DNA from: Schmidtea polychroa
Taxonomy: Eukaryota
NCBI GenBank assembly: GCA_044892525.1
Contig: CM097885.1
Span: 6,264,001 to 6,328,000, forward strand
DNA: 64,000 nt
Direction: 5' to 3'
The notes under the pieces were generated by a model. That model was given only the letters and a program-made list of their open reading frames with translations. It searched no databases and was not told where the DNA came from. Shown piece by piece: positions 7,930 through 58,915 of the stretch. Within the stretch, counting starts at the first letter, position 1. Each line of letters begins with the position of its first letter. A program made the translations under genes and the position numbers.

Positions 7930-9500
7930 CTATTGTGACATTTGACACTTTTTGTCGTGACACAGTTCTGAAATGTTTGCCTTAATATTTGATGTTGCCA
8001 CACGAAGTTGATTTGAAAGATTGTCATCAGTCAGCCTGCACCTGTTTTTGCTTTTAGTGAGTTTCATTTTTGAAAAAACTGTTCGAATATATAGGTGCTA
8101 GGAAAAAGTAATACCACTTTAAGCGCATGAAATCGAATTGATGGAAATGTTGCAGGGGAAACATAAAGTTTGTAAAATTGAATCAAAAATGTGTCGTGAT
8201 GTTTTCTTTGAAGGTTACTGTTGCACTGAAGTTCAATCAGTTCCATTTGAACTGAGTCTGGTGCAGCCTTTGCATTAAAATTGAATGGATCTGAAAATAA
8301 TTTGAAATCATGTTCATGAGCTGTGAAATCTGAAAATATTGTGCTGAACTCTGTTCTCAGAATTGAAATTTGTTCAGTATACTTCTTAATTTTCTCCAAA
8401 TCTTCATTAGTTTTTTTGCATCTAGTCAGACTTGGAAGTGCACTGTGTCACCTTTCGAAAACTGAAATTGCCTTAGTTTGAGTTTGGCTTGAAATGCTTT
8501 CACATGATCATAAAGATTGTTTACTAGTTGATTTTTACCTTGTAATGCTATATTAAGGTTATTCATCTATTCATATCATCTATTCGTCTTGTCACTGTCA
8601 TTCGAGACAGACTGATGCTCGAGAAAAGTTGTTTCTTTTCTGGGCAAAGACAATCAACAACTGCATCAATGCATTCTTTAATAAATTCGCCATCAGAAAA
8701 TGGTTTCAGTTTTTAAGCAATGATCTCGCTTATTTCAAAACTCGCCTTGGTTACACATTCCACATGTTTGCTGTCTTGAGAGTGCTGCCGTGAGGTTCTG
8801 AATTTTATCCTTTCTCAGCTGGCCATTAAGCTCGTCAAATATTTCTGCATGCTGAGTCTGGTAATGCCGCTTTACATTAAATTCTTTTCTAACAGCAACA
8901 GTTTGTTGACAGATTAAGCAAACCAACATATTCCTAGATTCAACAAAAAAATATTCTGGAGTCCACCGTTCATTAAATAAACAGCATTCACTGTCTATTT
9001 TCCTCTTTTTTATTGAGTTCATTCTTAGTGGTTGTAAATTTTATTAATTAATACTAAATACTAAATATAACAATAGTACAATGTAATTTAATTTTTAATC
9101 AAGATAGAACAAGATTTTAACAAAAAAGCCAATACTTCATACAAAAATAACCAGAGAAGAAGCATTGATTGGCTGCTTGTATACAGTTACAGAAAACCTA
9201 CATGATATTGTGGCTCATATTAATCACTAATTGTAGGACTGTAGTTAAACATAAGGGGTGATATTTGGCCCACATCAAATACTTACTACAGATACACTGC
9301 TGTAGGACAGTTGGCAAGCAAATACAAACCAGATATGATTTTGATGGCCTGACTAATCACAGCAAGACTTTTTAATGATAATATTCTTGTTTGTCAACGA
9401 AGGGTCTGTTTACTGGCTTTTTATTCTAGCTGCCAAAGGGTCGGATAAAAACAGTTGGCTGGCCGGGTCCGGCCCACCGGCCGTAAGTTGAGCATGCCTG
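7930..9500 (-). mobile_element. Decayed hAT (Charlie/SPIN, GTF2IRD2-like) transposon with internal deletion
   Basis: ORF 8735..9022 (KKRKIDSECCLFNERWTPEYFF..CLICQQTVAVRKEFNVKRHYQTQH) matches the SPIN/GTF2IRD2 N-terminal zinc finger. ORF 8064..8399 (LFSDPF..VQMELIELQC..LFPSTYIFEQFF) matches the hAT C-terminus. The 5' TIR CAGGCATGCTCAAC ends at 9500. Confidence 0.85.
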
Positions 9501-13063: not shown

Positions 13064-13152
13064 AATCTTCGCGTCTCCTGCATAGTACTGATAAGAGCCA
13101 AAAGCTCGAAACTAGTCTACTATTGGGATTTGCACTGGGTATCACAAAGCTT
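13064..13152 (+). ncRNA. Short hammerhead-ribozyme element, copy A (type I, minimal stem III, GUC site)
   Basis: atagta CTGATAA gagc caaaa gctc GAAAC ta GTC tactat: stem I atagta/tactat, stem II gagc/gctc, palindromic ACUAGU stem III. G8>A change in the core. Closely similar copies at 20576 and 48863. Confidence 0.8.
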
Positions 13153-13161
13153 ACTCTATAA

Positions 13162-13324
<163 letters not shown>

Positions 13325-14680: not shown

Positions 14681-14755
<75 letters not shown>

Positions 14756-15242
14756 AACAATAAAATGATAATTTAAGCCTTTTGCTGCAAATAATGTATT
14801 TAATGAAAGAATTTTCGACTATACGATAGTCCTTGTCAATCTCCTGGAATTTAGCAATGTTCTTCCCCAAAATACCTTTCAATCTTTCTTTGATTTCCTT
14901 TCTCTTAATTCTCATTGGTTGTAAATATAATGAATTGTTTTACTAAAAACTTTTAAAATTTTTTACATTTAAAATTTCAAAATGACACAAACTAAAAATT
15001 TTTAAATTTTTTTACAGCTTCTATAATTAGCTTCTAGAAGCCTAATAAAATATTTGAAAATATTTTAAATAAAGCCTCCAATAACTACTTATATATGCTA
15101 TTTAAATATTTCAATAAATGTGTCAATTTTGATTTTCAAACCCTATTTTTTAAAATTTTTTTTTTTATATTATTCTAATTATTACTTTTTAATTTATTCT
15201 ATTTTTTTTAATTTCTTTATATATTGTCAGTTATTCTCAAAG

Positions 15243-15666
15243 TCAATGACAACAGATCAAATTCATGATTTCATTGATTTCTTCTTTAGTGTTGATCTTT
15301 GGCTGTCTGTTTATGATGAGAATTGCTTCTTTGATTCTGACATTTTTCTTTTGGATGTTTCCATTAGCTATGATTTCTATTGAAATATTTTTTTCTTTCT
15401 TCTGTTGGCTGACACTGCCGGAGATGTCTGCCCAACGAGGATGTTCCACCAGGATCTAGATGTTCTTTAACTCTTTGGTGCAATGTCCTGAGGGTACTTC
15501 CAATGTAGATTTCATTGCATACATTGCACGTGATGCAATAGACGATGTTTTTTCTAAAGCACATATCTTTCGGTGTCTGGCAGTTTTTCATTGTGCCATT
15601 GTTTTCTCTATTTATGTTGCCTGCCAGAGCCCTTCTCAATGTCCAAGATTTATGTGCAATCATCAT
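15243..15666 (-). mobile_element. Penelope-like GIY-YIG endonuclease fragment, family C (frameshifted)
   Basis: NIVYCITCNVCNEIYIGSTLRTLHQRVKEH (GIY-YIG core), continuing after a frameshift as ..RIKEAILIINRQPKINTKEE. Confidence 0.85.
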
Positions 15667-15744
15667 TTTATATTATTATTATTATTATTATTATTATAGA
15701 GTGATGATTTATTGGTAGCAGCATTAATTAAATTTTAAACAAGC

Positions 15745-15787
15745 ATGAAATTGAAAAGAGCTATCTTATAGTCGAAAGTTTTTTCAT
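15745..15787 (+). ncRNA. Degenerate minimal hammerhead motif (AAGCUU-like class)
   Basis: atgaaa [ttgaaaa] gagctat ctt atagtc GAAA gttt tttcat: stem I atgaaa/tttcat and stem II are kept, but the CUGANGA box is mutated. Confidence 0.35.
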
Positions 15788-16824
15788 TTGTATTAAATAT
15801 TTAATTTTTGAAGCAAAGGGATTAAATTATCATTTAATTATTTAATATTATTACTTTTTTATCATTATTATCATTATTATTATTATAAAAATTATTATTT
15901 TTTTTAAATGTCAAATATTTTTAAATAATTTTTTAGTTGAAAAGAATTTATTTACAACTGTAAAATTGTAAAATAGTAATCACAAATTAATGATGTTTAA
16001 TAAATTATGATTTTACCTAATTCAAACAAATTGAATATTTAATTTGAAATTGGAAAACGCCAGCAACAAATTTTTTTCTGTAAACATAAATTTTATACAA
16101 AATTAATTTGCTGATTTCATAAAAACAATTAATAATTAATTTTAAGTTGCATTATAATTACGCGTACGTTTAAATTTCATTCGATTTGATAAATTATTCC
16201 ATATAACTTGTGTTTATTCTCAAATGTGACGGTTGGGATGAAGTATCTCAAGTTTGTCCTTTGACCCCCTTCAGCGCTTGAACTGATAATATAGTAAAAT
16301 AATATAATAAAATAAGAATCTTTTTTTTGGTTTCCTCTTTGATCTATTTTTAATTCAAAAACTTTCATATTAATATTTGTAAGACTATGGATCAAAATAA
16401 TATATAAGGTACTCAATATTTCAGCACAGCCTTTATCAAGTGTGTATTTCAATCGCTATATAAATTTACTTTACAAAATTAAATATCTTTGTTGTTCCAC
16501 TACCAGGTACCTCTGTTTTACCATAACCATGCCTAAAATGCGACGAAACCTACATTATTGAAACTCATAACACTTTTCTCGGCCGAATCAATGAGCGCAT
16601 TAAAAATAAACTTGTAATTTTCACGAAAAATGGGGAAATGACAGAAGAGTATTCCATTTATAGACAAATCAAAATGTCGACTTCTAGCTTTTTAAAATCC
16701 TTTTTTTGTATAATTCAAAAGTAAATTTAATTAGATTTAAATAAGAATTCAAATTAAATTATAATCAAATTTAAAATAAATTTTAATTTAATTAATTTCA
16801 ACCAATAAAGTCACTTTAAAATGT

Positions 16825-17460
16825 ATAAGAAAACGCCAAACAAACATTCGTATCGACAGTTTTCCTATCATCATCAGGTAGTAATTAATAACTATATAAA
16901 TTAAGGATTTAAAAAAAAATTTAATAATTTCATTAATTATATAAAAAAAATTCTTTTTAAAAATTATAATTAAATTAATATATTATTTTTAAATTTTAAC
17001 ATTTAGAATTTAATTTAACAACAACAATCAATACATACAATATACAAAAAAATATTTAAAAACATTTAAAGTACACAAGTATTCACTGCATTCTGCACAA
17101 TAATTTTCGGATTCAATGACTTTATCAACAACGCCTCACAAATCACACGTTCCCAATTATTTTCGATATTTTTTAAAAAAAATTTTAAATCAGACATTCC
17201 TATTTTAATCTTACAGCCCTTATTGTGCTCACTAATATGGATCAAAGCCTTCGGTCCATAATGCTCTCGGGCTCGAATACAGAGATGACGGGAAGCCTCT
17301 CCAATGTATGTGGCATTACACACATTACATGTAAACTGATAAACGAGATCGGAACACAATTAGACCAGAGTTTTAGACTTATTAATAAACATATTGCGTA
17401 CTTTCCATGAATTTGACTCGCTGAAATTTATTGTACCTTATATATTGTTTAGATCTAGTC
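16825..17460 (-). mobile_element. Penelope-like element 3' end, family A (GIY-YIG plus pLTR with degenerate hammerhead)
   Basis: ORF 17066..17359 (DLVYQFTCNVCNATYIGEASRHLCIRAREH). The minus strand near 16850-16885 reads ctacCTGATGAtgataggaaaactgtcGATA, a damaged copy of the 45833 hammerhead. Confidence 0.85.
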
Positions 17461-19264: not shown

Positions 19265-20575
19265 CATGTATATTATGTATGATTCGATAGAGAGAAGTCG
19301 ATTTGCAGATAACATTGGTCAATTTTGATAGATTTTTAAAGATTTAAATTAAATTTAAAAAATATTTTTATTAAATAATATTTTTAAAAAAAACTGAAAT
19401 TGAGCATTTTTAAAAAATATGTTTATCGAAAAATATTTTAAAAGGAAAATTGAAATTTGTTTAAATAACAAAAATAAGGAAGAAAAGTTTTTTTGAGTGT
19501 AAAATTTATTGAATAAAATTTATGGAATTATTTAGTGATTTGGAATTATTTAATGTTGCAACGGATGAGAATCCTAATATTGTCAATTACAATCTATTAA
19601 AATTTTTAAATTGTTATATAGTAATGTCTCGTTTAATGTCACCCGTAAAACGTTATTTCACTTGGATATTAAACTAAAATTTAAAATAATTTTTTTATGA
19701 AATTTTGATGAAAAATAAATTTTTTATTTTGTTTTAAAAATTATTTTTTGATGAAACAATAAAGTTTTTTTACATCTTTGCAACTTGTATGATGATGATT
19801 AGTTTTTTTTTATATAATATGTTCTGGGTCAGAAATAACCCCCTTCAATTTCTTCAATTTCGTGTTACTTCTTTATCCTTGACACACTGTGTCAGAATGC
19901 ATTTCCTCTTGATTCCAAGTGTGCGAAATCAATCTTTTCGTCATTTTTTAGTATTTCCTCAATAAATACTTCAGATTTTTTATTCCTTTGATCTTAGTCC
20001 ATTGTCACTTTTAGATCATTCATTAATTATGTCAGTCATTGAAATGCCAGGCTTTTCTTTTGCCGTTTGGTATTCATCAATCAACGCTATGTCAATAATA
20101 ACCAATATTATTTGGATCTTTAACCAATGTCTTTATTTTGAAAAATCTCTGACAGCCTTTGATGAATAGTTCTAAGTCCTTGTGGAATTTGTCTGGAAGT
20201 AATCTTCCGTTGAAGTAGTCACTATATTATAAGCTATAACACTTAAGTATTCATAAATAATTATTATTAAAAACACATATTTTCGAGATATAATATTTCT
20301 AATATCGACAATTTTAACTGACATTTAAAAATTTCAGCATTCAACATTTACAAGTTAAAAATGCTAAAGGTTTACGGATGCACTTGTAAACAGTTTCTGT
20401 GCATGACGGTGTCTCCAGAGGCGAATATGATTTTTCATACGTCATGTTTACAAGTTTGCAGATATTTGTTTCTGTGATTTAGCGAATTTGCAAGTGATGT
20501 GATTTTCAGTGTACCCGGAAAAGTATGCAATAGAGTTGAATCAGCAATATTGTATACTTACCTGGCGCGAAGAGA

Positions 20576-20664
20576 AATCTTCGCGTCTGCTGTATAGTAG
20601 TGATGAGAGCCAAAAGCTCGAAACTAGTCTACTATTGGGATTTACACTGGGTATCACAAAGCTT
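20576..20664 (+). ncRNA. Short hammerhead-ribozyme element, copy B
   Basis: atagta GTGATGA gagc caaaa gctc GAAAC ta GTC tactat (C3>G change). Preceded by the hairpin gcgcgaaga-GAAA-tcttcgcgt. Confidence 0.8.
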
Positions 20665-21114
20665 GTAATGTTTATCTTATTTCATTGTTAGACATCCGTA
20701 AAAAAATATTTTAATCCCTTTGAAACTGTAGTTTATATTTTAAATTTTAAGCATTTATTTTTCATTTTAAATTCCTTTTAGATGAAAACTTTAAAAATTT
20801 ACTTTTTAATTATTAAAACAATTCTTATATATTGTATTTATTAAAACATTGACTATGAATCAGTAAAAATATCGATGTTTATTTTATATTCATGAATTTT
20901 CAATAATTTCAATTTTAATTTGTGTTTGGTAATGTTTCTCGCCACAGCTATAATTAATATCTGCTAAATAATTTCTATAATCTTTCAAACAATAATTACC
21001 TCTGATTAAATCTCCAAAAATTGCTTTTTGACAATCAAATAAAACGTTAATTACAATCTAGATTTCCTAACTATCATAATCAAAGTATAAATTGATGATT
21101 TTTGGTAGCAGCAT

Positions 21115-24100
21115 AGCAGATGGATTTGGCCCCGCAAACCCAGGGGCCCACTAGACCACCCCCCGTTATAAAAATTTTTAAATAAACGTTTTTTTTCAAG
21201 GTCATATTTTTGTAATTTTAAATTTACAGAGTTCCAGCCAACGGAATTTATTGAACGATGGCTCATTTTAAACTCCAGAACAAACCTTTCGAATGAGCTA
21301 TATATATATATATAATCATTATTATTTCTAAAGATATTATTATTATTATTATTATTAATATCAAGTTTTATAAAATTTATTACAAAGTTTTATTATTAAT
21401 TTTATTATTTTTTGTACATTGTCTTATTCACAGCTTTTTCCAAATTTTTTATACAAGATTTTATTACAATGTTTGGAATATATCAAAATATACAAGTTTT
21501 TATAATATTTTATCCAAGTGCAACATTCTTAAATTTGAGAGGAGAAATCCTGATTTAAATTTATCTATAAATGTGTTTTCATTTAATCCTACCAGTTCTC
21601 ATCCCAATATTTCCGACGATTATGTAACTCACCACCCTCATCTTAGTATAATACATCGTTCTAAGGTTATCGATGGTAGGCCGATTTAATTATTACTTCT
21701 CAATAACAAAGATAAATATCATTATACGGCCGTTAATGATTTAGACAAGTTAATGAAATGTCATTTAAATGAGGATTGTAATGTACGAATAAGGTGTAAC
21801 TGATGCCCACATTGCCTTAATAGGTTCAGATATAAGAATGCTTTTGATCAGCATGTTGCTCTATGCTGTAAGAATCAGACTGGCACAACACTTTATACAC
21901 TCCCCAAAAATAAAGATTTATTGTTTACTGACTATTCAAAAACAGTTGCACCTCCCTTTGTGATTTATGCCGATTTTGAATCGGTTTTACCAGAACATAT
22001 CATACATCATCAAATTCATTTACCCATATCAGCAGGTCTTTTACTTATAAATAATTACAATCACACTAAATTTTATTTTGATTTTTTTGGAACAAATTGT
22101 ATTTTGGAATTTTTAAGGAAGGTGGAGGAAATTGCTACAATTGCCCTGCTATATTATGAGTCAAAGGTCATAAAGGCATGTCTACTTTGTCTTTTGCTCA
22201 GGAGCGTGCTTTCGGGTTAGCACTATTTGTTATTTGTGCAAAAAAGATATAATTAGTCCTGTTATAGATCATTGTCATTTCACCGGTAGATATTTAGGAG
22301 CTGCATGCAGGAAATGCAATGTCTCTCGTAGGATTAATAAATTATTACCGATAGTTTTTCATAATTTATGAGGCTATGATTTGCACTATATTTTGAAACA
22401 TGGCCTCAGTGATTTTGCCGCTTGGGAGTTGAATATTATACCTACCTCAACAGAGAAATTTATTTCTTTAATTGCTTATATTAACAAATTGCCTGTTCGT
22501 TTTATTGACAGCATGCAATTTGTTAATTGTTCTTTAGCCAAAGCTGTGAAAACTCTTACTACTTTTCCTTTAACGTCGTCTGTCTTTCAGAGGTCGATAA
22601 TTCATTCGAAAGGTATCTTTCCGTATACTTTTGCTACTTCTTTGGATGTGCTTGAGTCTACTTTGGAATTACCCCCTATTTGGTCTGATGTTACGGAAGA
22701 TGAGTACACTAAGGCTCAACTAATTTGGAGACAGCATAACTGTAATAATTGGTTAGATTGCATATTAACGTATCTTAAATTAGACGTATACCTCCTTGCA
22801 GCCTATTTTCAGAAATTCCGTGGAAAGGCCATTGGAATTCCCGGTATGTCTTGGGCCTCTAACATTAACGGAACCCATAGAACTTCTGCAGGACATGGAA
22901 ATGTATAATTTTTATGAGGGAGGTATACGGGGTGGGTTAACATTTGTTAACAAACATTACATTGCTACTTCAAATAATACAGAATTATTGTAAATAGATA
23001 TAAATAATCTATATGGTTGGGTTCTTAGCCAAAATCTTCCGTATGGTGATTTTTCTTAGGTGAATGATAATCTGAATGATGTTTTGCTTGAATATGTGAA
23101 CACGGATATTGATAACCTTCCATATGGGTATACAATGGAGGTTGGTATCGATATTCCGGAATGTGTGCACGATTTCTTGAATGATTTTCCGCTTGGGCCG
23201 GAAAAGTTGTGCCCGATTATTCAAAAGTCGAGAAGCTTATGCTTACGCATTGGCCAAAGAGGAACTACGTTCTTCACTGGAGGCTTCTTAAATTGTACAT
23301 AGAATTAGGTAGGGTTGTTGTAAATATTCATAGATGTATTAAATTTAAGCAAGCGCCTATATATTTAAAGCATATATAGACACCAACACAACTTTAAGAT
23401 CACAGTCTACTAGCAAAATATATAGGGGCTTGTTTAAATTAAATAATAATAGCCTGTACGGTAAATCCATAGAGAACCTCAAGAAACGAATGAATTTGAG
23501 GATCTATCTGAAATCTATCTGAAAAGATGATAGTATACGCCTCAAAACCGACTTTCCGGAAATCAATAAGAATTGACGGTGATCTGATAGCCACTCATTT
23601 AGAAAATGGCTCTATATGTTTAAACAGATTAAGACTAGTTACATAGGTCAAACAGTATTAGATCTGTCTAAACTGTGGATGTACCAGCATAAAAAATATT
23701 ACCAATAGCTTCTTTCTAGAGAATAAAAATCTCAAATTAGATGTCTTATTACCTCAGATGATCTCAGATAATTTATTGGACACATCTAACTATGATCCAA
23801 CACACCCCTTATATAATAGGAACCTTGACTCAGTCATCGGGAGGTTTAAAGATGAGAGCCAGGGATTAGGTTATTCAGAATGGATTTTCTTACACCCAAA
23901 ATGTTATAGTCTTTCAGACAGTAACATTTAAAGCAAAAGGGGTTAAATTACCTTGGACATCAATAAACCACCAAACTTATCTAGATTGTTATAACACAAA
24001 TCAGGTGATTTCTGAACTACAGACTAGAATAGGTACTAGAAATCATCAATTATTTACATTTAAAAACTCGAAAATTGCCCTATCAAATAATGATGATAAG

Positions 24101-24353: not shown

Positions 24354-24564
24354 TAGCATAAATTAAATGTTAAACAAATAAATAATAAAATAAGCCTTTT
24401 GCTGAAAATTCTGCATTATGTGAAAATAATTTCTAATGCTTTTTTATCTCATTTTTTATCTCCTTTTTTTAATGTTCTTTTAAACTCATTTTCTACCTTT
24501 TGATTAAATGAAATAAATTTATTTTCATTTTTTCCTTATTTTTAGTCATTAGTTGAAAACGTGA

Positions 24565-27209: not shown

Positions 27210-28598
27210 ATGAAATATCATAAGTTTAAAAAAAAGGAGCTCAAAGCAGGCCTTGTTACGAACAATGAAACACTGGACGGAAACGAAAGCATTACAGTGA
27301 ACAAAGAACTAGTAACCGACCTCACAAATTGTCTATCCAAAGGTGAAAAAGGATTACTTTCACTAGGACCAAAGTTCAGTATAAACAGAGAAATAGATGA
27401 AGCAGCCATCCTCAATTTCAGAACAGCTCTTTGTCGCATTGCGTACCAGATCAAATGGAACAATACAATACCGCATGAAAATGAAAATAGCGAAAACCAG
27501 CTCCCAGTATACATAAACACAGATAAACTCTATCAACCAAATCCTGATGCAGAATTAGATTCAACACTCTCAAAGGTCTGTCACAAAATCATGGAGATAG
27601 TTGAGAAGGAAAGAAGAAAACCATATCTCTCAAACCTAACGAAAGACGAACAGGCAATATTAAAATCCCTTAAAAAGAAACCGTACGTTTACTTACCAAG
27701 TGACAAGAGGGGAGAATTTTGCATTATAGAGAAGAATCATTACTGTGAAGCTGGTTACGAACACCTCGGCAACATCGAAACTTACAAGAAAGGCAGCCGC
27801 ATGTCACCAAACACCATCGAAATGAAGATCAACAAAGTATGGAAAGCCATAGCTTTGGAAATGAGGCTCAACAACAGAATAACCAACAGCTTCGTCACAA
27901 AAAATTCTGATCTTCCTAACTTCTACCACCTAATTAAAACTCACAAAGAGGGTCCTGGTATCAAAATTAGACCTATAGTGTCCAACAAAAATGGACCAAC
28001 AACTAAAACAAGTTGGCTCCTTGCAAAGATCTTGAAACCTTTATTGGACACGATACCACACCATCTTCAAAGCAGCGACTGCCTTATGACAAGACTAAAT
28101 AATAACATGACTTGTCATAGAGAATTCCAATACCCATTTAGTCTTGATGTCGTATCACTATACACATCTATCGAACCAACAGAGGCTATTCAATGTTTAG
28201 AAAAGAAATTAAGAGAAAGCAACTTGTTAATAAAGGAAATGAATATCGAGAATATCACCAAACTACTTACTGTTATCCTCGAGAACACCTATTTTACCTT
28301 TGAACAAAATATCTATAAACAAGTTAAAGGTCTGCCTATGGGTTCTAGCATATCAGGACTGCTAGCAATCATCTTTATGGATAACCTCGAACGACAGACA
28401 CTGAGGACCATACAACCCATCGGTTTCTATGCAAGATATGTAGATGATATCTTCATCACGACCAAAAACAGAAAAGAAGCGGAGGAAATATTTCATACAT
28501 TCAATGCGGCTCATCAAGATATTAAGTTCGAAATCGAATATCCGGAAGAAGATGGATCCCTCAATTTATTGGATTTGATCTGTTTTTGTTTTTCTTAA
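27210..28598 (+). mobile_element. Penelope-like retroelement reverse transcriptase ORF, 3'-truncated (no GIY-YIG)
   Basis: Uninterrupted 462-aa ORF with PLE motifs LLSLGPKF, SNLTKDE, PSDKRGEF, FYHLIKTHK, IRPIVS, SLDVVSLYTSI, QVKGLPMGS, RYVDDIF and SLNLLDL. Confidence 0.92.
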
Positions 28599-38823: not shown

Positions 38824-41241
38824 TAGGACACCGAAAACTCTAATTTCGGATTTTTCGGTTTCGACCGAAAAATAAATTTATTTATAAAAATTTGTATTAC
38901 TTTAAAGATTGAATTTTTTACTTTTAAATCTATTGTTAAAAAATTGTTAAAAAATTTTTATACTTTTACTTTTTAATTTTATTCCAGTTATTTCCCATGA
39001 ATAGTTCGAATTCAAAAAAAGGAGTGAAGTTTGGAATTATTTTGAAGTCGATGAAATAGAATAAAATATTGCAATTTGCAATATTTGTGGAACAGAAGTT
39101 AAACGAGGCAAAAGAGGATGTCCGAGGCTTTTTACAACGAGTTCCTTGGAATACCATTTAAAATCAAAGCACGCGATAAATTTAAAGTTGTTAAAGGGAT
39201 CTGACGAAGATATCGATCTGGGTAAATTGAAACAAACTACTTTGGTTGATATTTTTAAACCTTGTAATATTTGGGAAATAGAAAATCCAAATTCAATAAA
39301 AATTTCTATTGCGATTGCAAAAAATGATTTCATTAGATCTGCAACCATATCAATTGTCGAGCAAACAGGATTTAAAAATCTTCCTAAAGTTCTTGAGCCA
39401 AGATATATAATTCCTTCTAGAAAGTACTTTTCATATAATATGATTCCATCGGTTTTCGAAAATTTAAAGAAAAATATTAAAAATCAGCTTAAAAGAATCA
39501 ATTGCGTCTCATTAACTACTGATATGTGGACAACTGAGTTTACAACTTTTTGTTTCATGTGCTTCACTGCACATTGGGTTTCTGAGGAATTTGAAAGAAA
39601 AAGTAGACTCAGCTCATGCGAGCCTTTCAATTTACAACATACTGTTGATAATATCGGTAATGAATTTGAAAATTCATTGATCGAATGGAATTTATATACA
39701 AAATGTTCTTTTATAGTACATGATAATCCAGCAAACGTTCAAAAGGCGTTTAGAACCAACAGGGCCGTAACAAGGGTGGTGCGAGCGGTGCAGTTGCACA
39801 GGGCGCACATCTGAAAGGAGCGCAAAATTGGGATATACCACTTTTTTAATGTCACCAAAAAATGAAAAAATATAAATAAAAAATAATAAATTACATGAAC
39901 GAAAAAAAAACGACATCCTAGCTAGCCTATCTTTAACATTACTGATTGGACAGGTCATTAGCGTGCCTTCGTAGGTGTGTATTTTATAAAATGTTAGTCC
40001 ACAAAATGGGTTCCTGTCATTTTTTCAATTAGCAACAGAATTTTAAGAGCATAATAGCTGGAGATGAATACATAGTCAACAATCTTAACATGAACATTAT
40101 AATGATTATAGTACACTGTTTTGAATTCGCGTGTTGGGGGCGCCAGATATATAAACCACACAGGGCGCAATAATGCCTTGTTACGGCCTTGAGAACCAAA
40201 TATATCGAAGAAATTCTTTGTTTTTCGCACACGTTACAATTAGTGATAAAAGATCCTATTTATAATTTTGATGAAATTCTAAAAATTCTATTTTCCATTT
40301 GAAAAATTATTGGATATTTTAATAGTTTTTAAGAATTACTAAATCAATTTGTCGCAAAAACAAAAACAAAAGTAGACTATTGATTAATAAAATTTATTGT
40401 TGTTGTGAATAATTATTTATATTCGTATAAATTTTTTATGTAAGACCCTACCCTCGCGCTAAGCACTGGTCAAACCTCTGAGCTCGCTGACGAGGTGAGG
40501 CGTCGATGCCTTACGATACTTTATATAGTAGAGCGCGGCTCAGCTACCGAAAATTAAATCATAGCGCAAGTGGTTAAATTGAATTTATCATTGATAGCAA
40601 GAAGTGAAAATATAATTAGCAATCCTATTTATATTATTTCAACTTTGCTAGATCCAAGATTTAAAAACAAAATATTTGATCCAGCAAATTTTAATTTAGA
40701 TTTAATTAAAAAAGAAATGATTAAATTTTTTCCTAAATTTGAAATCGAAAAAACTGAATTAAAAAATGAAATTATTTTTGAAAAAAATTCAAATATTTGG
40801 AATTTATTAGATAATTTTGATTCTTCTATTGAGATTGCTAATTGCAAATATTCTTATTCAGCTTTTGAATCCGAGATAAATAATTATTTATTTGTAAGCT
40901 TATCTCCAAAAGATAAAGATATAATTAATTACTGGAAAATTATTTCTAACAGGTTTTCTTACTTTCTAACCTAGCTAAACAGTTTCTATCGTGCCCTTCG
41001 ACTAGCGTTCAATCTGAGCGTGTTTTCAGTTGTGCTGGAAATGTAATAACTGATCAGAGCTAAAATTCTTTCTGAAAATGCTGAAAAAATAGTTTTTAAA
41101 AAATTAAACAATAAATTTTTAAGTTAAATTTTTTTAAAAGTGGTTGTAAAAATTTTTTTGTTTCAAAAATTTAATATAATGTTGTTCACAAAAATTTTCG
41201 GTTTCGGTCGAAACAAAAAAACTCAATTCGGTGCACCCATA
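38824..41241 (+). mobile_element. hAT (Ac/ZBED1-ZBED4-like) transposon with both ends, interrupted by nested insertions
   Basis: 8-bp TSD gtaatagg (38816-38823 and 41242-41249); ends taggacaccgaa / ttcggtgcacccata. BED finger VWNYF..AICNICG..HLKSKH; SLTTDMWT; CFTAHW; VHDNPAN; CFSHTLQL after insert removal; TLLDPRFK; CPSTSVQSERVFS dimerisation domain. Confidence 0.9.
39760..40191. mobile_element. hAT-type MITE nested in the transposase gene
   Basis: TIRs cagggccgtaacaagg / ccttgttacggccttg with a perfect 8-bp TSD agaaccaa. Removing it restores ..QKAFRTKYIEEILCFSHTLQL. Confidence 0.9.
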
Positions 41242-41866: not shown

Positions 41867-42175
41867 ATGACTTCAGGTGTTAAATGTGACCCTTAAGTTG
41901 AAGAATATCTTAATTACATTAAATTACAACACAGATTTCAATATGTAATCTTTGGACTCAACAAAAAGAAGGATAGAATTATTCAATTAGAAACTGGGAA
42001 ATTAGGTACTCCTTATGAAAAATTCAGATTACACATGATGGGAACATATGTTAAAGAAGGTTGCTATGCATTATATGACTATCAAGGTACTTTGGCGTTT
42101 ATTTCATGGAAACTAGAAACAATGAAAATCAATAGTCGTATGATTATGGCTGCTTCAAAATCAAACATTGCAACC
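41867..42175 (+). pseudogene. Cofilin/ADF-family fragment (N-terminal ~100 aa, one stop at codon 10)
   Basis: MTSGVKCDP*VEEYLNYIKLQHRFQYVIFGL..YEKF..EGCYALYDY..LAFISW..TMKINSRMIMAASK fits the ADF-H pattern MxSGV..K....RY.IF..C.YA.YD..L.FISW.P....K.KM.YA.SK. Confidence 0.75.
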
Positions 42176-42415
42176 AACAGCCTTATTTCTGCATCAAGGA
42201 ATAAATCTAGGATTATTTAGGATGACTTTGAAAGTGATGCTGTTATGTCAAATGATGGTCAATTTTCATTGTCTGGATCATGGGACGGGACTTTAATGTT
42301 ATGGGATTTATCCAAATTTATCTTCTCGCCAAACATATATTGGCTATGTGCTGCAACTGGATCGTCTATCCAGATTTGGGAGTCGGAAAATAAAGTTTCG
42401 GTTGGAGACTTGAAA
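42176..42415 (+). pseudogene. RACK1: RACK1 fragments (end of WD1, WD2, WD6) collapsed together
   Basis: LISASRNKSRII* ~ [41 protein letters not shown] ~ [59 protein letters not shown] ~ [31 protein letters not shown]. Confidence 0.85.
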
Positions 42416-42457
42416 GCCTATTCTAATGAAATCTATTCAGTTCTAATTTTTCTTAAA

Positions 42458-42628
42458 ATGTCGTTAAATTGTTCTGTTTCCAACGAAATTCTTGAAGTTC
42501 CAGTTCTTAATAGATTATCAGGACATGTTTCTGAAAAAAGGTTAATCGAAAAACATTCGATGACAAGTGATCTAGATCCTATTATTGGAATACAGTTTTC
42601 TGTAGATGATTTGATTGAAATTAAAGTT
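42458..42628 (+). pseudogene. PRPF19: Prp19 N-terminal U-box fragment
   Basis: MSLNCSVSNEILEVPVLNRLSGHVSEKRLIEKH...DPI...FSVDDLIEIKV ~ Prp19 [33 protein letters not shown]...DPI...LSEEQLIDIKV. Confidence 0.85.
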
Positions 42629-42795
42629 CCAATGCATTTTCTTTCTTGTATTCACTCGATTCAAACTGTATTTTAAACGAAAATCAATAAATCATTAACA
42701 AAAGTAAAACTTATCCATAAACATTGATGGGAATGTCAACACAAATGAAATTTAGAGAATACACTCAAATTCTGTATATATCGCGCAGTCAAAAA

Positions 42796-43250
<455 letters not shown>

Positions 43251-45319
43251 AATGAAGATCTGTTTAGACTTGTCACATATAGCTACAGTGGGAGGATAAA
43301 TTTCTATACTGGCCTTCATTTGAGTCGACTATCGAATATCGAAAATTTATGTGGTGCGTCCAATAAGTAGTGAGACTCGTATAGAAATAAATAAATGAAC
43401 GCAAATATCTTTCGTATTTACAATAAGCAATTCATGTAAAGTTTATTTCTAAACTAATTTCCAGTTATATTGACACATTTTCCTCAGAGTGTAATCAAGA
43501 TCTTGAAGCCAATTTTGATGCTTAAAAGGGCTTTTAATTGATTCTGGTCTAAAAATTGGATGCCAATTGAAAAGGAATCAGTGGTGAAAATCGAATGAAC
43601 TTCTTATAATCTTCAGGGACAGTCCTGTAAATTCCTGATAGAAAATATTTTCTTTAATTTGTTGAAAAATATTTAATAAATTCAATTATAATTAATATAA
43701 TTAAAAGAGAAAATAGTGAAAAAAATAACTAAATTTAATAATTTTTACTAAATAAATAAATACAGTTTATTTGATTTTAGTTTTTAGTTTATTATAAACT
43801 TCAAACATCCTTTTGAAATGGAAAGTTATCCAGGAAATAATCAATCTGCTGTGTATCAATTTATTGGAGGGGGGGGGGGGTGTTGAGAAATGAAGTGAAA
43901 ACCAATAATTACAATTTAGCGACTTTTTTTCAAAATTTAAAAATATGTTTAATCATTACGTAATCTTTTGATCCAGAATGATTATGTAACTAAACACTGA
44001 GTGTTTGCAATTCCAGAAACCAATTAGAGCTACAAAAAAGGTATTTGGAAAAGAAGCTTTAAAAAATTAAAAGTTTCTGGTTGATCAAGACCAACGAATC
44101 AGCCGTCCAATGTTTGTTATCAGTTCAATCTGTAAATTCTAACATTTGCCTAGCCTCCACTGTCATGGAACCAATATCCGCCAGTGACTTCCGGAAAATC
44201 TCTTTACCAAAAGAAAACTTTATTAGCCTTATGCAAACCTTCAGGCCAGATAATGGAACATTTGGAAAATCCAAATTTTAATCAACTCTAAAATGAGAAA
44301 ATTCATAACCTTTTCAGTAAAATCCTTTATTTAAAACCCTTGAAAAGGCAGTGCTAAAGATTTGTGTTATACTGTTGGAATAATTGGATCGATAATCGTA
44401 ATAAAAATAAATGAAAATTTCCAATAAATATTTTAATAAAAAATGAAATAAATATGACTGTCACGTTCAATAACAAATAATATTGTTGCGGTATGATCCT
44501 GGTGTGGGGAGTCTCCATAAAACCGAACACCAACGACATCAATCACTTTCTGACGGTCTCTTCTCAGAGATAATAATAATTATTATTATTAAATCTTGTT
44601 TTTTCATAGTAGAAATTTTACTCAACCCAGTTTCTCTGAGATTTTCGTATTCTTTTTCGTCCAGTTGGCAGTAAACTGCTGTTTGTTCACTATTTTCAAT
44701 CCCAATTTAACAGCGATTCCCTTGTTTTCCAGTTTGGCAAAATGAGGTCAAAGAAATCTTAACGGGAATAACAGATTTCGGTAAACAAATCTGTAGGGAT
44801 TCTAATGAGCAAAACTTGGGCGACTGTAACTGGGGAGGGTCATCCAAGCTGCGGTTAATTAGGAAATGGCCAACTAGGCGGCAGAAATGTTAAAATGTTT
44901 GTAAAAGTAACCAAAATGTAAAAGTAACATCTCAATTAATTTTAAAACCACAAACTAAATTAAAAATTGATGTAACTTGGAGGAAACAGGAATGTATGGA
45001 TGGCAAATAATGAGACAAATACAAATACAATCAAATCAAATCAATGGAAGTCCCTAGAAAAAGATATTCAAAAAATACAAATTAATTAAAAATAAATAAA
45101 TAATTTAGTTGCTATTTGAGAAACCCGAGCGAAAAATGAGAAAATAATGACATTAACCGTTTCTCCAAAATCATTAAAAAGGTTAAGTTTCGCAAAATGA
45201 AATTAGCTGTGGATTGAAAGTGTGGTTAACAATATTGTAAGGAAACAATATTGTTTGGAAATTTAAACTATAGGATAGTGTCAACTTCATGGAAAGTACG
45301 CAATATGTTTATTAATAAG

Positions 45320-45900
45320 TCTAAAACTCCGGTTGGACTGTGTTCCGATCTCGTTTATCAGTTTACATGTAATGGGTGTAATGCCACATACATTGGAGAG
45401 ACTTCCCTTCATCTCGGTATTTGAGCTCTAAAACATTATAGACCGAGGGCTTTTACCCATATTAGTGAGCACAATAAGGGCTGTAAGAGTAAAATAGGAA
45501 TGTCTGATTTTAAAATTTTATTAAAAAATTTCGATAATTATTGGGAACGTGTGATTTGTGAGGCGTTGTTGATAAAGTCATTGAAGCCAAAAATTAATGT
45601 GCAAAATGCAGTGAATACTTGTATTTTAAATGTTTTTAAATAATTATTTAAAAATTGATTGTTGTGTTAAATTAAATAATTAATAAAATTTTTTAAATTA
45701 TTTAATTAAATTTTGAATGTTTAAAATTTAATTATGATTTTTAAAAATAATTAAATGTTTTTATTAAAAAAGTTTTTATATAATTAATAAATTTGTTTAA
45801 AATCCTTAACTTACATAGTTATTATATCCCACCTGATGATGACAGGAAAACTGTCGAAATATATGTGAAAAGAATGTTTGATTGGCGTTATCTTATAATA
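45320..45900 (+). mobile_element. Penelope-like element 3' end, family A (GIY-YIG plus pLTR)
   Basis: LCSDLVYQFTCNGCNATYIGETS..HISEHNKGC..WERVICEALLIKSLKPKINVQ. Reverse-complement homologue of the 16825-17460 copy, including the 3' non-coding tail. Confidence 0.85.
45826..45870 (+). ncRNA. Minimal hammerhead ribozyme motif in the Penelope pLTR (AUAUAU class)
   Basis: cccac CTGATGA t gacag gaaaa ctgtc GAAA tatat gtg: both core boxes intact, 5-bp stem II, palindromic AUAUAU. The cleavage-site nucleotide is unclear and may be lost. Confidence 0.7.
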
Positions 45901-48830: not shown

Positions 48831-48862
48831 ATTTATAAAATAAAATTTTTACAAAGTCTACA

Positions 48863-48952
48863 CAAGTTATGTGATACCCAGTGCAGGTAGCAATAGTAGA
48901 CTAGTTTCGAGCCTTTTGTTCTCACCAGTACTATGCAGGAGACGCGAAGATT
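48863..48952 (-). ncRNA. Short hammerhead-ribozyme element, copy C
   Basis: Minus strand: aatcttcgcgtctcctgc atagta CTGGTGA gaac aaaag gctc GAAAC ta GTC tactat tg...tgcactgggtatcac (A6>G change). Confidence 0.8.
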
Positions 48953-49352
48953 TAAATATTAAATATGCACGATTTCCAAGATTGCTACAATCATCACAAA
49001 AGAGGACATTTGAGAGATTGAGAGAGGGATTATTTCATGAAATTAAGTTGATTTATTGTAAGCAGTCTCTAGTGATGGTTGATCAAAGATCACTGTATAT
49101 AAAGGTTACTAACTTACTTCCGGTTGCCAGTTTTTTTGTTCAAAAGCAAGACAAAGTCAAGAAAATATGTTATACTTGAGAATTCCCTAGCAATATCAAA
49201 TTTGAAACATTTAATTATTGTTTTGTAGAAATGGTAGCTTTTTAAAGTTATAATAAATTCAAGTTGTGCAAAATATTTTTGTAGAAATAAAATATTTAAT
49301 TTGTTGAGTCTCAATTATCTTTGGAGAAGTTTATTACAAGTCTATCAATTAA

Positions 49353-51098: not shown

Positions 51099-53397
51099 AA
51101 ACAAGCTGCTATTGTGTTTTTAAAATTTGGTGATTTTATTTTCCACTAGAAATGATTAAAGAGTCAATAAGATTTTAAATAATTAATTAATTAGTATGTA
51201 TTTTTGTAATTACATCTATTGGAAACTCTTCATTGATTATTAAATTCATTTTCGATTTTTAATTTGTTACCTACTTCCATACTTTCTTGAAAAATACATT
51301 AACAATGTTGCAAAAGACTATGAAATTGTTACCAATGCTATGTATAGTGAGTTTCTTGCTATTAGTGAAAAGTTCTGCGAACTAATATACGAACTAAAAC
51401 GTCCAGTAATAATATTTTTCAATAAACAAAAAATTTTGTCCAAATATTTAGTGTTTTTATTTACCTGATTTTTATTTATATTTCACTTTTAATTAATTTT
51501 GTATTTTCTTACATGTTTTAGCAAGTAGGGTAATGAAATTGACTCCTCTATCATGTTTTCATTTAATATTTGTTGATGATAATGTAAAGAAATTTCAATT
51601 AAAATAAAAAAAGTATTTGATCAGAGGTAATTGTATTATCCTCCTTAGTAATAAAAGGGTTATTACCCTGTTTCAAAAAGTTTGTTATAACTTGAATTTA
51701 TTGAGTGTAAAAGTATTCGAGTTAAAAAACGCCCTTTTTGTTAAAAAATGAATTGAAAGCTTAAGTTGCATTGTAAATAAAAATACAAAATAATTACAGA
51801 GAAAAAACTTGAAAACCTTATTCAAAATATTTATTTTAGAAAAATTTCTCTACAAAAAATTATTTGCACATCGTCGTGTGTAATTTTGAAATTTTTCAAA
51901 TAATTGAGTCCCTGCTTTTTGTGTGCCGGTGATGATTTCTTTTTTATTAACAAATTTTTTGTGTGTAAAATAGAAAATTTAGCAAAGAAAATAGTTACAA
52001 GTTTCGCTAATTGTAAATAAAAGAAAAGTTGAAGAATACGGTTATGTCAATAAAATTTTAAGAGTTAATAAAAATAACAATTCGGTAACATTTGAATTAG
52101 TTTCATATTTCCCAAACTCATGAAATGTTGAATCCTTTCATGTTTCAATAAACAATGACTACAAAGCGGCTAACAGAAAAAGGTAAAAAAAACAAAATTT
52201 ACAAAAGTTTAAAATTTCATGTCGCTTACTAAACAGAATGGTAAACAAGGCCATAGCTAATACAAATTGGTTTTTACATGTTTGAGGAGTATTTATTTTA
52301 TAAATTAATTTTTTAAATCAACGTTCCCTGTGTCATATTTCAATGTTATTCAGTCGAAGTCTAGCATTTTAAGCAAATTTTTTCATGATATTTTAGTAGA
52401 ATTTTTTGAAATACTGATAATAAAATTATTTACACCTAGACGTATCTGGGAAGCATGGCTAGTTACACGCGAAAACTGTATTTCAAAGATATCCATCAAC
52501 AATAGCAACCAAAAAATACTCAACTCAAATTTTGTCCCCAATCGGTTTTATGTGTCCCTAATTTTTGTAATGTAAATTCTTAAATAAAAATAATTGTAAC
52601 ATTTTATTTTTTACTTGCTTTTATGAAATCTATTCTGGCAAAATTTACAGTTTGAAAAATTTGGTTAAAAATATTTTAGGTAAACAAATAAAAAAAGATG
52701 AAAGAAAGGAAGCAAAATAAGTAGTCAAATTAAGAAAATAAAAAGCTAAATGAATATTTTCTTAGGTTTTAATTCGGATGCTGACATTTTTAGAAATATT
52801 TGTACGGAACTTTAATTTTACAATTTCCAGTATAATTTGCAACTTCTTAAAATCTATAGGCTCTTTTTTTGAAATATTAGTACATGTATCATCATTTTTT
52901 CATTACTATTTTCTGAAACAATAATGAACATTTTTGGAAAGACTAAATAAGTCACTAAATTTAAAATTTTAATCTTGAAAAAAATTAATTTCCCAAATTT
53001 CAAATACTCATGTAAACTAACTAAACGGATAAAATAAAAAGCATTAAAGGAAAATTCAAAACTTGTTTAACCTCGAAATACTTTTTATAATTTTACACTG
53101 CATTTTACGTTTAATAATGTAACTTGAAATATATTAACTTAATATTAAAATATTAAATTATTATGTGGCTTTTAATCTATATAAAAAATTGCTTGAAATA
53201 AAATCATTATTGAAATTCTTAATGAATTGTATTTTAGATATTTTAAAATTTCGTTTTTTTTTGTTATATAATATATTAAAAAATACAGAAATTGACTATA
53301 AAAAGGTTTGTTTAAATAAATTATATTAATAACAATTTTTAAGTAATTTATATATATTTTAAAATTGGTTTATCGGAAATTTAAATTTTAATTCAAA

Positions 53398-53748
53398 ATG
53401 GACATTTACAATGGATCCTCTGAACCAAATAACTCAAAATACTTACAAATCGATAAAAATTTAATAAATGACCCACTTCAATCTTCTGATTGGGCATCCA
53501 AAAAGTTGATTTGGATACCAGATGACTTAAATGGATATGCAATTGCTCAAATTTTTAAAGAAAGTGTTGAAGAATGCATTGTTCAGATACCAGAAACTGG
53601 AAAACAAAAAGTGATTTTAAAAGATCTTATTCAAAAAATGAATCCGCCAAAATTTTCAAAATCAGAAGACATGGCGAATTTGACTTACCTCAACGAAGCG
53701 TCTGTATTAAGCAATATCAAAGAAAGATATTTCAGTGGATTAATTTAT
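53398..53748 (+). CDS. Myosin II heavy chain coding exon 1
   Basis: ATG to ..FSGLIY|gtaagt. Confidence 0.92.
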
Positions 53749-56700
53749 GTAAGTTATTTTATCAAAGTAATTGCATATATTTATTATTTAGACATATTCT
53801 GGTTTATTTTGTGTTGTATTAAACCCATACAAAAGACTTCCAATTTATAACGATGAAATTATCGAATGGTATAAAGGACGAAAACGTCACGAAAGGCCAC
53901 CTCACATATATGCTATAGCAGATACAGCATATAGAAACATGTTACAAGACAGAGAAGATCAATCAATTCTTTGCACGTTAGAATCATTGAGTTTTTAATT
54001 TCAAATAAATAGAATTCGGTTTTTTCAGTGGTGAATCAGGAGCTGGGAAAACAGAAAATACGAAAAAAGTCATCCAATATTTAGCATCAGTTGCAGCAAG
54101 TATGAAAAACCAGAAACTCACCGCCTCAAATGCCATTGCTCAATTTCATGTAAATTTTAATTAATTTCCATTTAAATTTTCCATTAAATTCAACTAGGCA
54201 AGCGCGATTAATATTGTAAGTGGTTTTTATTTGACTTATAGTTGTCTTTCGATGTTTAATTTGCAACGCTTTCCATATTAATGAGCTGCCATTGGAATGT
54301 TTGTTGTGATGCTGATAATGCTGCTGCTGCTATTGCTATTATTGCTGCCGTTTGTATTATATAATGGGATTTATTAATAATTTATATTTAATTATTATTA
54401 TTATTATTATTATTATTAAATTTGCTAACAAATCAAGGTTCCATTTGTCGATTTGTTGGTTGATATTGATGCCACTACACAATCAATGAATACGCTGGAA
54501 TGAGTCAGTGGAATTTATAATAATAATAATAATAATTATTATTATTGCTTCTGATACATTCAATGATGATTATTTTGCTGCTGACGTTCTCTGTAATTGG
54601 CCGGTGATCGATGTTGCCAGCAATTCAACACACACACACACACACACAAGCAAATACACACACACTCGACTGTGATTCTGACATGCAATTCCACAAAAAT
54701 CGTGCTGGTGTGTGTGTGTGTGTCAAACACATCTGCACAATTTCTCTCTCATTTCATTAGTTGGAAATTTTATTTAAATTTTTAATTAAATTTTAAATTT
54801 CCTTGATAATATTAAAATTACAAATTATGTTATTGGTCGATATCGGTGATTTGTGTAGGTTTTGGGGCTTGTGTAACACACATTGTCATTGGTTATTGTT
54901 ATTATTGTTATTTATTTCGGTTCTTTTTGTTAGGGCGAGTTGGAAAAGCAATTGTTGCAGGCAAATCCGATTTTGGAGGCTTTCGGGAACGCAAAAACCA
55001 TTCGGAATGATAATTCATCCAGATTTGTTAGTTTTTCTAATTGGTGATTGAATTGAATGTAATTTAGGGTAAATTTATCAGGATCAATTTCGATAGTTCC
55101 GGATTCATCGCCGGTGCTAATATTGAAACATGTAATATTTTAATTAATTTTTTTACAATTAATTAAAATATAATTTTTATATATAAATGAAAATAATATT
55201 TTTTATGATTAATTTTACGTACAAATTATTTTTTATTTCTACAATTAATTTATAATTAATTATTTGTAAAATAAATTAATTAAAATGAATTCATTAGATT
55301 ATGCGAACAAAATATTTTAAAATTTACATTTAACTTCAAATTAAATAATTAATTAATTAAAATAAGTTAAAAAAATATTTTAAAATTTTAATTCTTAATA
55401 AATATTTTTTAATAATTTATTTTTTTTACAATTAATTTTTCTAAATTAATTAAAATATAATTTTTATTATTAAATGAAAAAATATTTTATTATTGATTAA
55501 TTTTATGGACAAATTATTTTTTATTTTTACAATTCATTTATAATTAATTATTTGTAAAATAAATAAATTAAAATTAATTCACTAAAATATGCGAAAAAAA
55601 TATTTTAAAATTCCACATTTCCAACTTGTTCTCTGTCCAAAATTTTTTAAAGATTTTAATAAAAATCGTGAAATTTTTTTTTAATTAAAAAAATATATTT
55701 ATGGCGTACCTAAATTGAAAAATTTTTATCTTTAAAATTATTCAAGTGTAAAAAAATATTTGGTATCGATTTAAAAAATTTAATAATTTTTGATATATTA
55801 AAAAATTTTTGTCGTTAAAATTATTATTAGTTAAATACAATTATTTAATTTTATATATATATTTAAAATTTTTATAATTCCACATTTTCAACTTCTCTGT
55901 CCAAAATTTTTTAAAAATTTAAATAAAATTCGTAGGAATTTTTTTAAATTAAAAAAATATTTTTATGGTGATCCATTTATGTTCCTGCACCGCGTACCTA
56001 AATTCAAAAATTTTTATCTTTAAAATCATTCAAAAATTGCACTGAAGGCTAAAAAAATATTTGGTATCGATTTTACAAAAATCGAGTTGATCCATTTTCC
56101 CAAGCGAATGTTACACTAAATACTTAATCTATATAGTTCACAAATATATTAACATATCAAGCATATTAAATAAATTTAATTTTAATTGTTGCTAATGAAG
56201 GCATATTTATTTGGTATCGATTTTTATTTTTACAATTTATTAAAATTAATTTTTTAAAAAAATTTATTTTAACTTCAAATTAAATAATTTAATTATTTTT
56301 ATGATTAAGTTTAATTAATTATTAATTTTTCTGATTTAATTTAAATTGATTAAATAAATTTTTTATTTCTACAATTTAATAATTTTTGACAAGTTAAAAA
56401 TATTTTTATTGTTAAAATTATTATTTATTAGTTAATTACAATTATTTAATTTTATACATTTTTAAAATTTTTATAATTCCACATTTTCAACTTGTTCTGT
56501 GTCCAAAATATTTTAAAAATTTAAATAAAATTCATGGGAAATTTTTTAAATTAAAAAATCCCGTAAAATTATAAAAAAAAATTTTAAAAAAATTCGAGTT
56601 GATCCATTTTCCTTGGCGAATGTTACATTAAATACATAGTCTATGTAATCAAAAAATATATTTACACATTAAGCGTATTAAATAAATTTAATTTTAATAT

Positions 56701-58635: not shown

Positions 58636-58692
<57 letters not shown>

Positions 58693-58745
58693 TATTAATA
58701 AAATTTATTATTATTAATATTTATTATTATTATTTATTCTTATTA

Positions 58746-58801
<56 letters not shown>

Positions 58802-58870
58802 CATTATTATTATTATTTATTAATAAAATTTATTATTATTAATATTTATTATTATTATTTATTCTTATTA

Positions 58871-58915
<45 letters not shown>

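Follow-up and report, generated by a model that had tools for sequence, protein, structure and literature searches.

The window, a stretch of 64,000 nucleotides from Schmidtea polychroa (GenBank assembly GCA_044892525.1, contig CM097885.1, positions 6,264,001 to 6,328,000 of the forward strand), contains three copies of a repeat with a hammerhead ribozyme motif. The copies that the first-pass annotation had listed are all present, at 13064 (+), about 20576 (+) and 48862-48953 (-), and a 20-mer that they share has three matches in the window as opposed to none in 100 shuffles. The copies and their parts are as follows.

13064..13160, + strand: copy 1, 5'-truncated within the loop of hairpin B, with a tail resembling that of an older subfamily
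13082-13123, + strand: hammerhead of copy 1, core CTGATAA (G8A)
13162..13323, + strand: (ATT)n microsatellite, read from the sequence, at the 3' end of copy 1; the family has a bias toward microsatellites
20348..20717, + strand: copy 2, one complete 370-bp retrozyme unit, circularly permuted
20486..20495, + strand: snRNA-promoter-like 10-mer of copy 2, at -68 from the U1-like start; also an arm of the long stem, paired with the 3' tail
20521..20559, + strand: hairpin A of copy 2, whose upstream arm pairs with and masks the U1 tip
20523-20532, + strand: second snRNA-promoter-like motif of copy 2, at -31 and 71 nt ahead of the first hammerhead base
20554..20572, + strand: U1 snRNA 5' end (bases 1-19) in copy 2, by sequence match
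20564..20587, + strand: hairpin B of copy 2 (10 bp, GAAA loop), whose 5' arm is U1 bases 11-19
20594..20635, + strand: type I hammerhead of copy 2, core GTGATGA (C3G), predicted to be cut after 20629
20594..20635, + strand: helices of the copy 2 hammerhead as read from the sequence, with helix I of 6 bp, helix II of 4 bp and a palindromic helix III
20636..20717, + strand: 3' tail of copy 2, with the family's two preferred 3' end sites at about 20679 and about 20720
48862..48953, - strand: copy 3, 5'-truncated and more decayed, 85% identical to copy 2
48893-48934, - strand: hammerhead of copy 3, core CTGGTGA (A6G), with helix II broken

The sequence confirms that each copy has one different core substitution (G8A, C3G and A6G) and a GUC site, and that no ORF of at least 100 aa with a Pfam match is attached, both as annotated; all three copies are predicted to be inactive. 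The initial description of an element of about 90 nt does not hold, because copy 2 is a full 370-bp unit (20348-20717). The copies were also said to have nearly the same ends, but only copies 1 and 3 have starts near the same base, and copy 2 is far longer. The U1 5' end at 20554 had been missed. Elsewhere in the window, a separate family of dispersed repeats is represented by three copies with 88-92% identity (345-578, 17048-17417 and 45280-45649). Relics of mobile elements include an RT fragment (27210-28595), a fragment of a B-type DNA polymerase (22372-22905), a zf-BED match (39065-39811) and a Spin-doc zinc finger (8738-9040), and host exons lie at 41897-42673 (cofilin/ADF and WD40 matches) and 53392-60086 (myosin head exons). 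Fragments of the end repeats of the main autonomous Penelope-like element (PLE) family, which has a minimal hammerhead with a U3-A8 core, are found at 14746-14845, 15173-15248, 15681-15851 and 24355-24433.

The three short repeats of the window are decayed or broken pieces of an abundant non-coding repeat of 370-383 bases. A search of the 781-Mb genome found full-length matches on all four large contigs, and in the flanks of these matches the sequence that follows the hammerhead runs back into the sequence that precedes it, with tandem periods of 370, 371, 375, 378 and 383. The look for tandem copies that had been proposed with the annotation thus returned head-to-tail units of 370-383 bp. One triple of consecutive units (L051-L053) has no differences across the 280 nt compared. 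The two ends of copy 2, 20717 and 20348, are joined to each other in contigs of runs X1 and X15; these runs, like X2, X4, X6 and X7, are assembled contigs of guessed or unknown kind, whose depth was not used and which tell nothing of strand, ends or circles. Counts in the genome are high, with none of the corresponding reversed-pattern controls giving a single match: there are 2097 23-mers within one mismatch, 989 exact copies of the U1-like 19-mer (all 20 of those sampled lie inside the element) and 640 perfect 40-nt ribozyme cores. These 640 cores are intact, whereas each window copy is mutated. The unit has a GC content of 37% and folds far better than its shuffles (z -9.35 and -7.53, with none of 100 shuffles as good). 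At least three subfamilies can be told apart by variants of the tail and the upstream part. By its intact type I core, its tandem units in the range of about 170-400 nt and its non-coding, low-GC, self-paired unit, the family fits a non-LTR retrozyme. Units of the 383 type have an Sm-like T run situated in a hairpin. The copies at L055/L056, L127, L185 and L238 lack the U1 segment or hairpin B, or have other sequence in its place, in what look like single-locus events.

The hammerhead has a 4-bp helix II closed by a CAAAA loop and a helix III formed by the palindrome ACUAGU just before the GUC site, and its helices match the canonical layout of metazoan type I hammerheads (PMC4209133). Rfam hammerhead models made no call over the cut-off in the window, and RF00163 made none on the genome; the ribozyme was therefore assigned by comparing the sequence directly with the description of type I hammerheads in PMC4209133. 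The hammerhead is predicted to cut as a dimer. Energy estimates give -6.2 kcal/mol for self-pairing of the helix III palindrome, and a cost of 5.7 kcal/mol for closing helix III in the monomer. A more distant hammerhead-like match lies within an inverted repeat at L125:239-268 (minus strand), and possibly belongs to another family.

Evidence for the mode of mobilization came from the anatomy of the insertions. The element was mapped at 85 non-redundant loci, which all lie on contig C1 and come from the first 100 entries in the list of 640 cores; each locus included 1.5 or 3 kb of its upstream DNA. Rows L052 and L053 (the array of L051) and L056, L184 and L206 (duplicates) were dropped before counting. 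The 3' ends form two classes about 40 nt apart, with 51/85 at +77 to +96 and 24/85 at +112 to +144 from the start of the core, and the 5' ends of the 85 loci are scattered. At least 360 bp is spanned by 28/85 loci, 52/85 copies reach at least 68 nt upstream of the U1 start, and an inverted 5' segment is found in 21/85. Of 41 5' ends within a 211-nt range, 18 coincide with the positions of these two 3' end sites in the preceding unit (p 2.5e-5, for windows chosen afterwards), an enrichment that is expected if the reverse transcriptase (RT) circles its template once. Microsatellites contain the 3' ends of 40/85 copies, as compared with 162/2737 background windows (5.9%), and flanking direct repeats of at least 8 nt are found at 11/40 non-microsatellite loci versus 12% under the null. 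Partial tandems, an inverted 5' copy, a tail of 30-40 bp and a bias toward microsatellites are marks of PLEs (PMC8557442), and the anatomy of this element, with partial tandems, an inverted 5' copy, a tail of about 40 bp and microsatellite targets, fits them. These data, together with the lack of an attached PLE ORF, support the suggestion made in the first-pass annotation of a non-autonomous retrozyme that was probably mobilized by Penelope, and make such mobilization likely.

The best explanation, to which we give a probability of roughly 80%, is that the repeat, which combines a type I hammerhead motif with a U1 5' end, is a non-LTR retrozyme whose tandem transcripts would self-cleave as dimers, circularize and be recopied into AT-rich DNA by a Penelope-like RT/endonuclease. 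The steps of this model are drawn by analogy from published retrozymes. Tandem copies would be transcribed by RNA polymerase II (Pol II), either by read-through or from an internal snRNA-type start. Adjacent hammerheads would then pair through the helix III palindrome, cleave after GUC as a dimer and excise the unit RNA, which a host RtcB-type ligase may close into a circle; closure of retrozyme RNA by a host ligase was shown for the retrozymes of axolotl and mussel (PMC7229834). Finally, a PLE RT/endonuclease would begin on the tail, primed at AT-rich nicks, and its product would comprise a partial unit, a single unit or several of them.

The same insertion anatomy would be expected if the repeat were the solo or tandem pLTR of an autonomous Penelope family outside the loci sampled, and retrozymes have been proposed to derive from pLTRs (bioRxiv 10.64898/2026.07.22.740005). 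GIY-YIG elements are common in this genome (143 matches among the 150 scored of 2572 candidates), and some of them have open ORFs of the RT/GIY-YIG type with lengths of 776-856 aa. The end repeats of the PLE families examined bear minimal hammerheads that are unrelated to that of the retrozyme, one of them with a U3-A8 core; most of these motifs were missed by a strict hammerhead descriptor and recovered by a relaxed one. However, the tail of the element is followed directly by the upstream part of the unit, and PLE protein hits in the retrozyme loci (5/85, leaving out the tblastn hits at six loci of the L139 and L141 ORFs, which were not shown to be PLE) are antisense or end at least 1.1 kb upstream, with none continuing into the element. 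Across the 85 loci there is no shared upstream flank beyond that of one neighboring pair. The annotation had named an autonomous Penelope family with this segment as its pLTR as the finding that would overturn its proposal; the element flanks an RT-GIY-YIG ORF as a repeat in 0/85 element loci and 0/50 GIY-YIG loci. The 50 GIY-YIG loci do contain two copies of the element (L097 and L127), and both are separate insertions. Similarity between its tail and six PLE pLTR tails is not significant (p 0.05-0.65), in a comparison for which most PLE candidates were unscored. Since the loci all lie on C1, with 1.5 or 3 kb of upstream sequence, and 150 of the 2572 candidates were scored, a rare autonomous relative can be missed. 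Given these data, we consider it quite improbable that the copies are pLTRs of such a family.

The annotation likened the element instead to Sm-alpha, as a tRNA-derived SINE transcribed by RNA polymerase III (Pol III). The resemblance was seen in part in the string ctggcgcga, which is in fact the end of the U1 snRNA 5' match. Consistent with such an element are a weak A-like box (+10), which is followed after 53 nt by a B-like box, and the position of the main class of 3' ends, near the first T4 run. Exact A and B boxes are absent, and upon the 5' extension that had been proposed, the best pair of boxes had three mismatches to the consensus and was equalled in 250/400 shuffles, that is, at chance level; moreover, the B-like box is part of the hammerhead. 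ARAGORN found no tRNA in 4/4 loci, the 383-bp unit contains six runs of at least four T, and the 52/85 copies noted above extend at least 68 nt upstream of the supposed head. A Pol III SINE is the least likely of the readings considered here.

The retrozyme unit matches the U1 snRNA of the genome from base 1, starting 76 nt before the cut site. The match is 16/16 with the U1 genes L031 and L033 and 18/19 with the arrayed L041 type, and none of 300 shuffles was as good; four other U1 loci have no significant match to this tip. The motif is found at the expected spacing in 25/30 loci that were selected by their cores, and it is carried by copies of the older subfamily. Its 19 columns contain no subfamily variants, which is not significant, other stretches also having none. 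The arm that pairs with the tip carries three shared variants, with the tip kept in three subfamilies, and in some copies the upstream arm of hairpin A resembles a 5' splice site. In folding of a long RNA the tip is paired with this upstream arm, whereas folding from +1 leaves the first 10 bases of the tip unpaired. Contigs of run X6, labelled organism B, match the unit from U1 base 3 through the tail at about 83-86%, with other sequence upstream.

The pairing of the tip with a donor-like arm in its own unit raises the alternative that the match is not U1-derived and arose incidentally, when a 5' splice site was copied as a fold-back, the more so as the part kept in organism B is the complement of the donor consensus. 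Identity continues beyond base 11, though, through U1 bases 12-19, which a splice site leaves unexplained, and the donor-like arm is the variable side of the pair. A splice-site origin is improbable, to much the same degree as the pLTR reading. We favor a U1 origin, most likely through a single capture of the tip from a U1 variant in the common ancestor of the three subfamilies. Either an RT template switch or insertion at the start of a U1 gene could have brought this about, and the fold-back arms that pair with the tip would then have fixed it.

The genome contains other U1-related sequences. A U1-like start that is 18/19 identical to the tip lies at L034:1313 (running downward, minus strand) in a U1/U5 cluster on C1, with a promoter-like word at -76 and a body that Rfam does not call; this could be an unlisted small RNA or a U1 variant, close to the donor type, that has decayed. 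Several U1 variants with altered 5' splice-site-binding ends and very divergent bodies are found at L034, L035, L036, L038, L039 and L040. Tandem arrays on C4 and C2 carry U1 (L041, 1771-bp unit), U4 with two U1 variants (L144, about 2.07-kb unit) and U2 (L077, about 1014-bp unit).

The U1 tip is most likely a structural relic, a reading that we put at about even odds; that it is a working snRNA-type start is a tentative second. The latter would refine the main model, in that the unit would have captured the start of a U1 gene along with its promoter, and each unit would drive Pol II from the U1-like A. Among 13 snRNA promoters of U1, U2, U4 and U5 genes, a motif of the ATGYAAA type is found at -69 to -78 in 9, or in 11 with a variant. 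The best-scoring site for this promoter motif in the 371-bp unit is at -68, close to the position in the host genes, with 7.9-9.8 bits and a shuffle p of 0.003-0.006, for a window that was widened after the site had been seen. The match to U1 begins exactly at base 1, the organism B contigs (9 and 3) stop matching upstream of U1 base 3, and 8/44 5' ends fall within -7 to +5 of the U1-like start (p 0.04). These observations are consistent with a captured promoter, but a strong hairpin near +1 could also stop RT there. The -68 motif is good in one subfamily, but it scores 2.4 bits in 11/17 young copies of the 383 type, and older copies have other sequence in its place; the motif also pairs with the tail, and with matrices 12 or 14 wide it is not the top-ranked site. 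The sequence upstream of the tip has no homology to any of the 13 snRNA promoters (p 0.2-1.0). Lastly, the similar motif at -31, which is without a shared subfamily variant, would place the start at the hammerhead instead. We regard a captured promoter as possible, though less likely than not.

A stronger version of this proposal has the retrozyme taking over the U1 gene start, such that each unit is the snRNA-type promoter for the next, and cleavage frees a capped 76-nt mini-U1 whose tip, unpaired in the linear form but masked in the circular one, could compete at 5' splice sites. We regard this combination as unlikely. Slightly less likely again is the proposal that the tip functions as RNA, with a transcript from +1 cut by the hammerhead to give a 76-nt U1 decoy with a free splice-site-binding end. 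The folding described above, in which the first 10 bases are single-stranded from +1 and masked by hairpin A in a longer RNA, is in line with such a decoy, and the tip is kept in organism B as well as in three subfamilies whose pairing arm has three shared variants. However, a 76-mer would be without the rest of U1, including the loop of stem-loop 1 and the Sm site, conservation of the tip is statistically no different from that of the neighboring stems, and the decoy depends on the putative start at +1.

The retrozyme has parallels with several known systems. Metazoan non-LTR retrozymes (PMC7229834; bioRxiv 10.64898/2026.07.22.740005) likewise have a type I hammerhead and tandem units of 170-400 nt with GC under 45%; they are highly self-paired and non-coding, and co-occur with PLEs. 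Platyhelminths are named among the carriers of such repeats (same sources). A difference is the U1 5' end inside the unit of the present element; the main texts of both sources are without mention of an snRNA or a promoter in this sense. In Schistosoma, Sm-alpha and Sj-alpha are also high-copy flatworm repeats with a canonical type I hammerhead (cited in PMC2770079 and PMC2220036). They are cited as having a Pol III promoter, whereas the retrozyme has no tRNA and no significant A or B boxes, in a comparison made by description. The pLTRs of EN+ PLEs (PMC4209133; PMC8557442) share the partial tandems, the inverted 5' copy, the tail of about 40 bp and the microsatellite targets. Unlike these pLTRs, the element is without an ORF, has a canonical rather than a minimal hammerhead and is unrelated to the pLTRs of the PLE families examined.

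Two further systems provide precedents for the association with snRNA. Newt satellite 2 is a hammerhead repeat of about 330 bp with a short helix III and dimer cleavage (PMC7229834); according to Coats, Zhang and Epstein 1994, as cited in PMC2220036, it contains an internal Pol II promoter of the snRNA type. In the present element, by contrast, the snRNA link is U1 coding sequence and the promoter is putative; satellite 2 was compared by its description. Crocodilian SINEU (Kojima 2015, PMC4494074) is a non-autonomous retroelement with U1-derived sequence, which was ascribed to template switching. SINEU heads form the 5' end of linear SINEs mobilized by Tx1, with no ribozyme reported in the available text (PMC4494074), whereas the 16-19 U1 nucleotides of the retrozyme lie inside a circularly permuted hammerhead unit that, in 52/85 copies, extends at least 68 nt further upstream. 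As far as these sources go, each half of the arrangement thus has a precedent, SINEU for U1 capture and newt satellite 2 for the snRNA promoter, and U1 inside a retrozyme is unusual. No published description of a U1-bearing retrozyme was found in a search that ran outside subscription journals, Repbase, Dfam and supplements.

The circular RNAs of animal retrozymes are reported to be highly expressed, but the route of their transcription is largely open. Only a circularly permuted element, of which this retrozyme is an example, can carry along an upstream snRNA promoter. The exact U1 start, about a thousand intact tips and the identical tandem copies lead to a precise predicted start (+1) and a precise predicted product (76 nt). 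Should the promoter fail, the element would still show that a Penelope-type system can capture snRNA sequence, as a parallel to SINEU.
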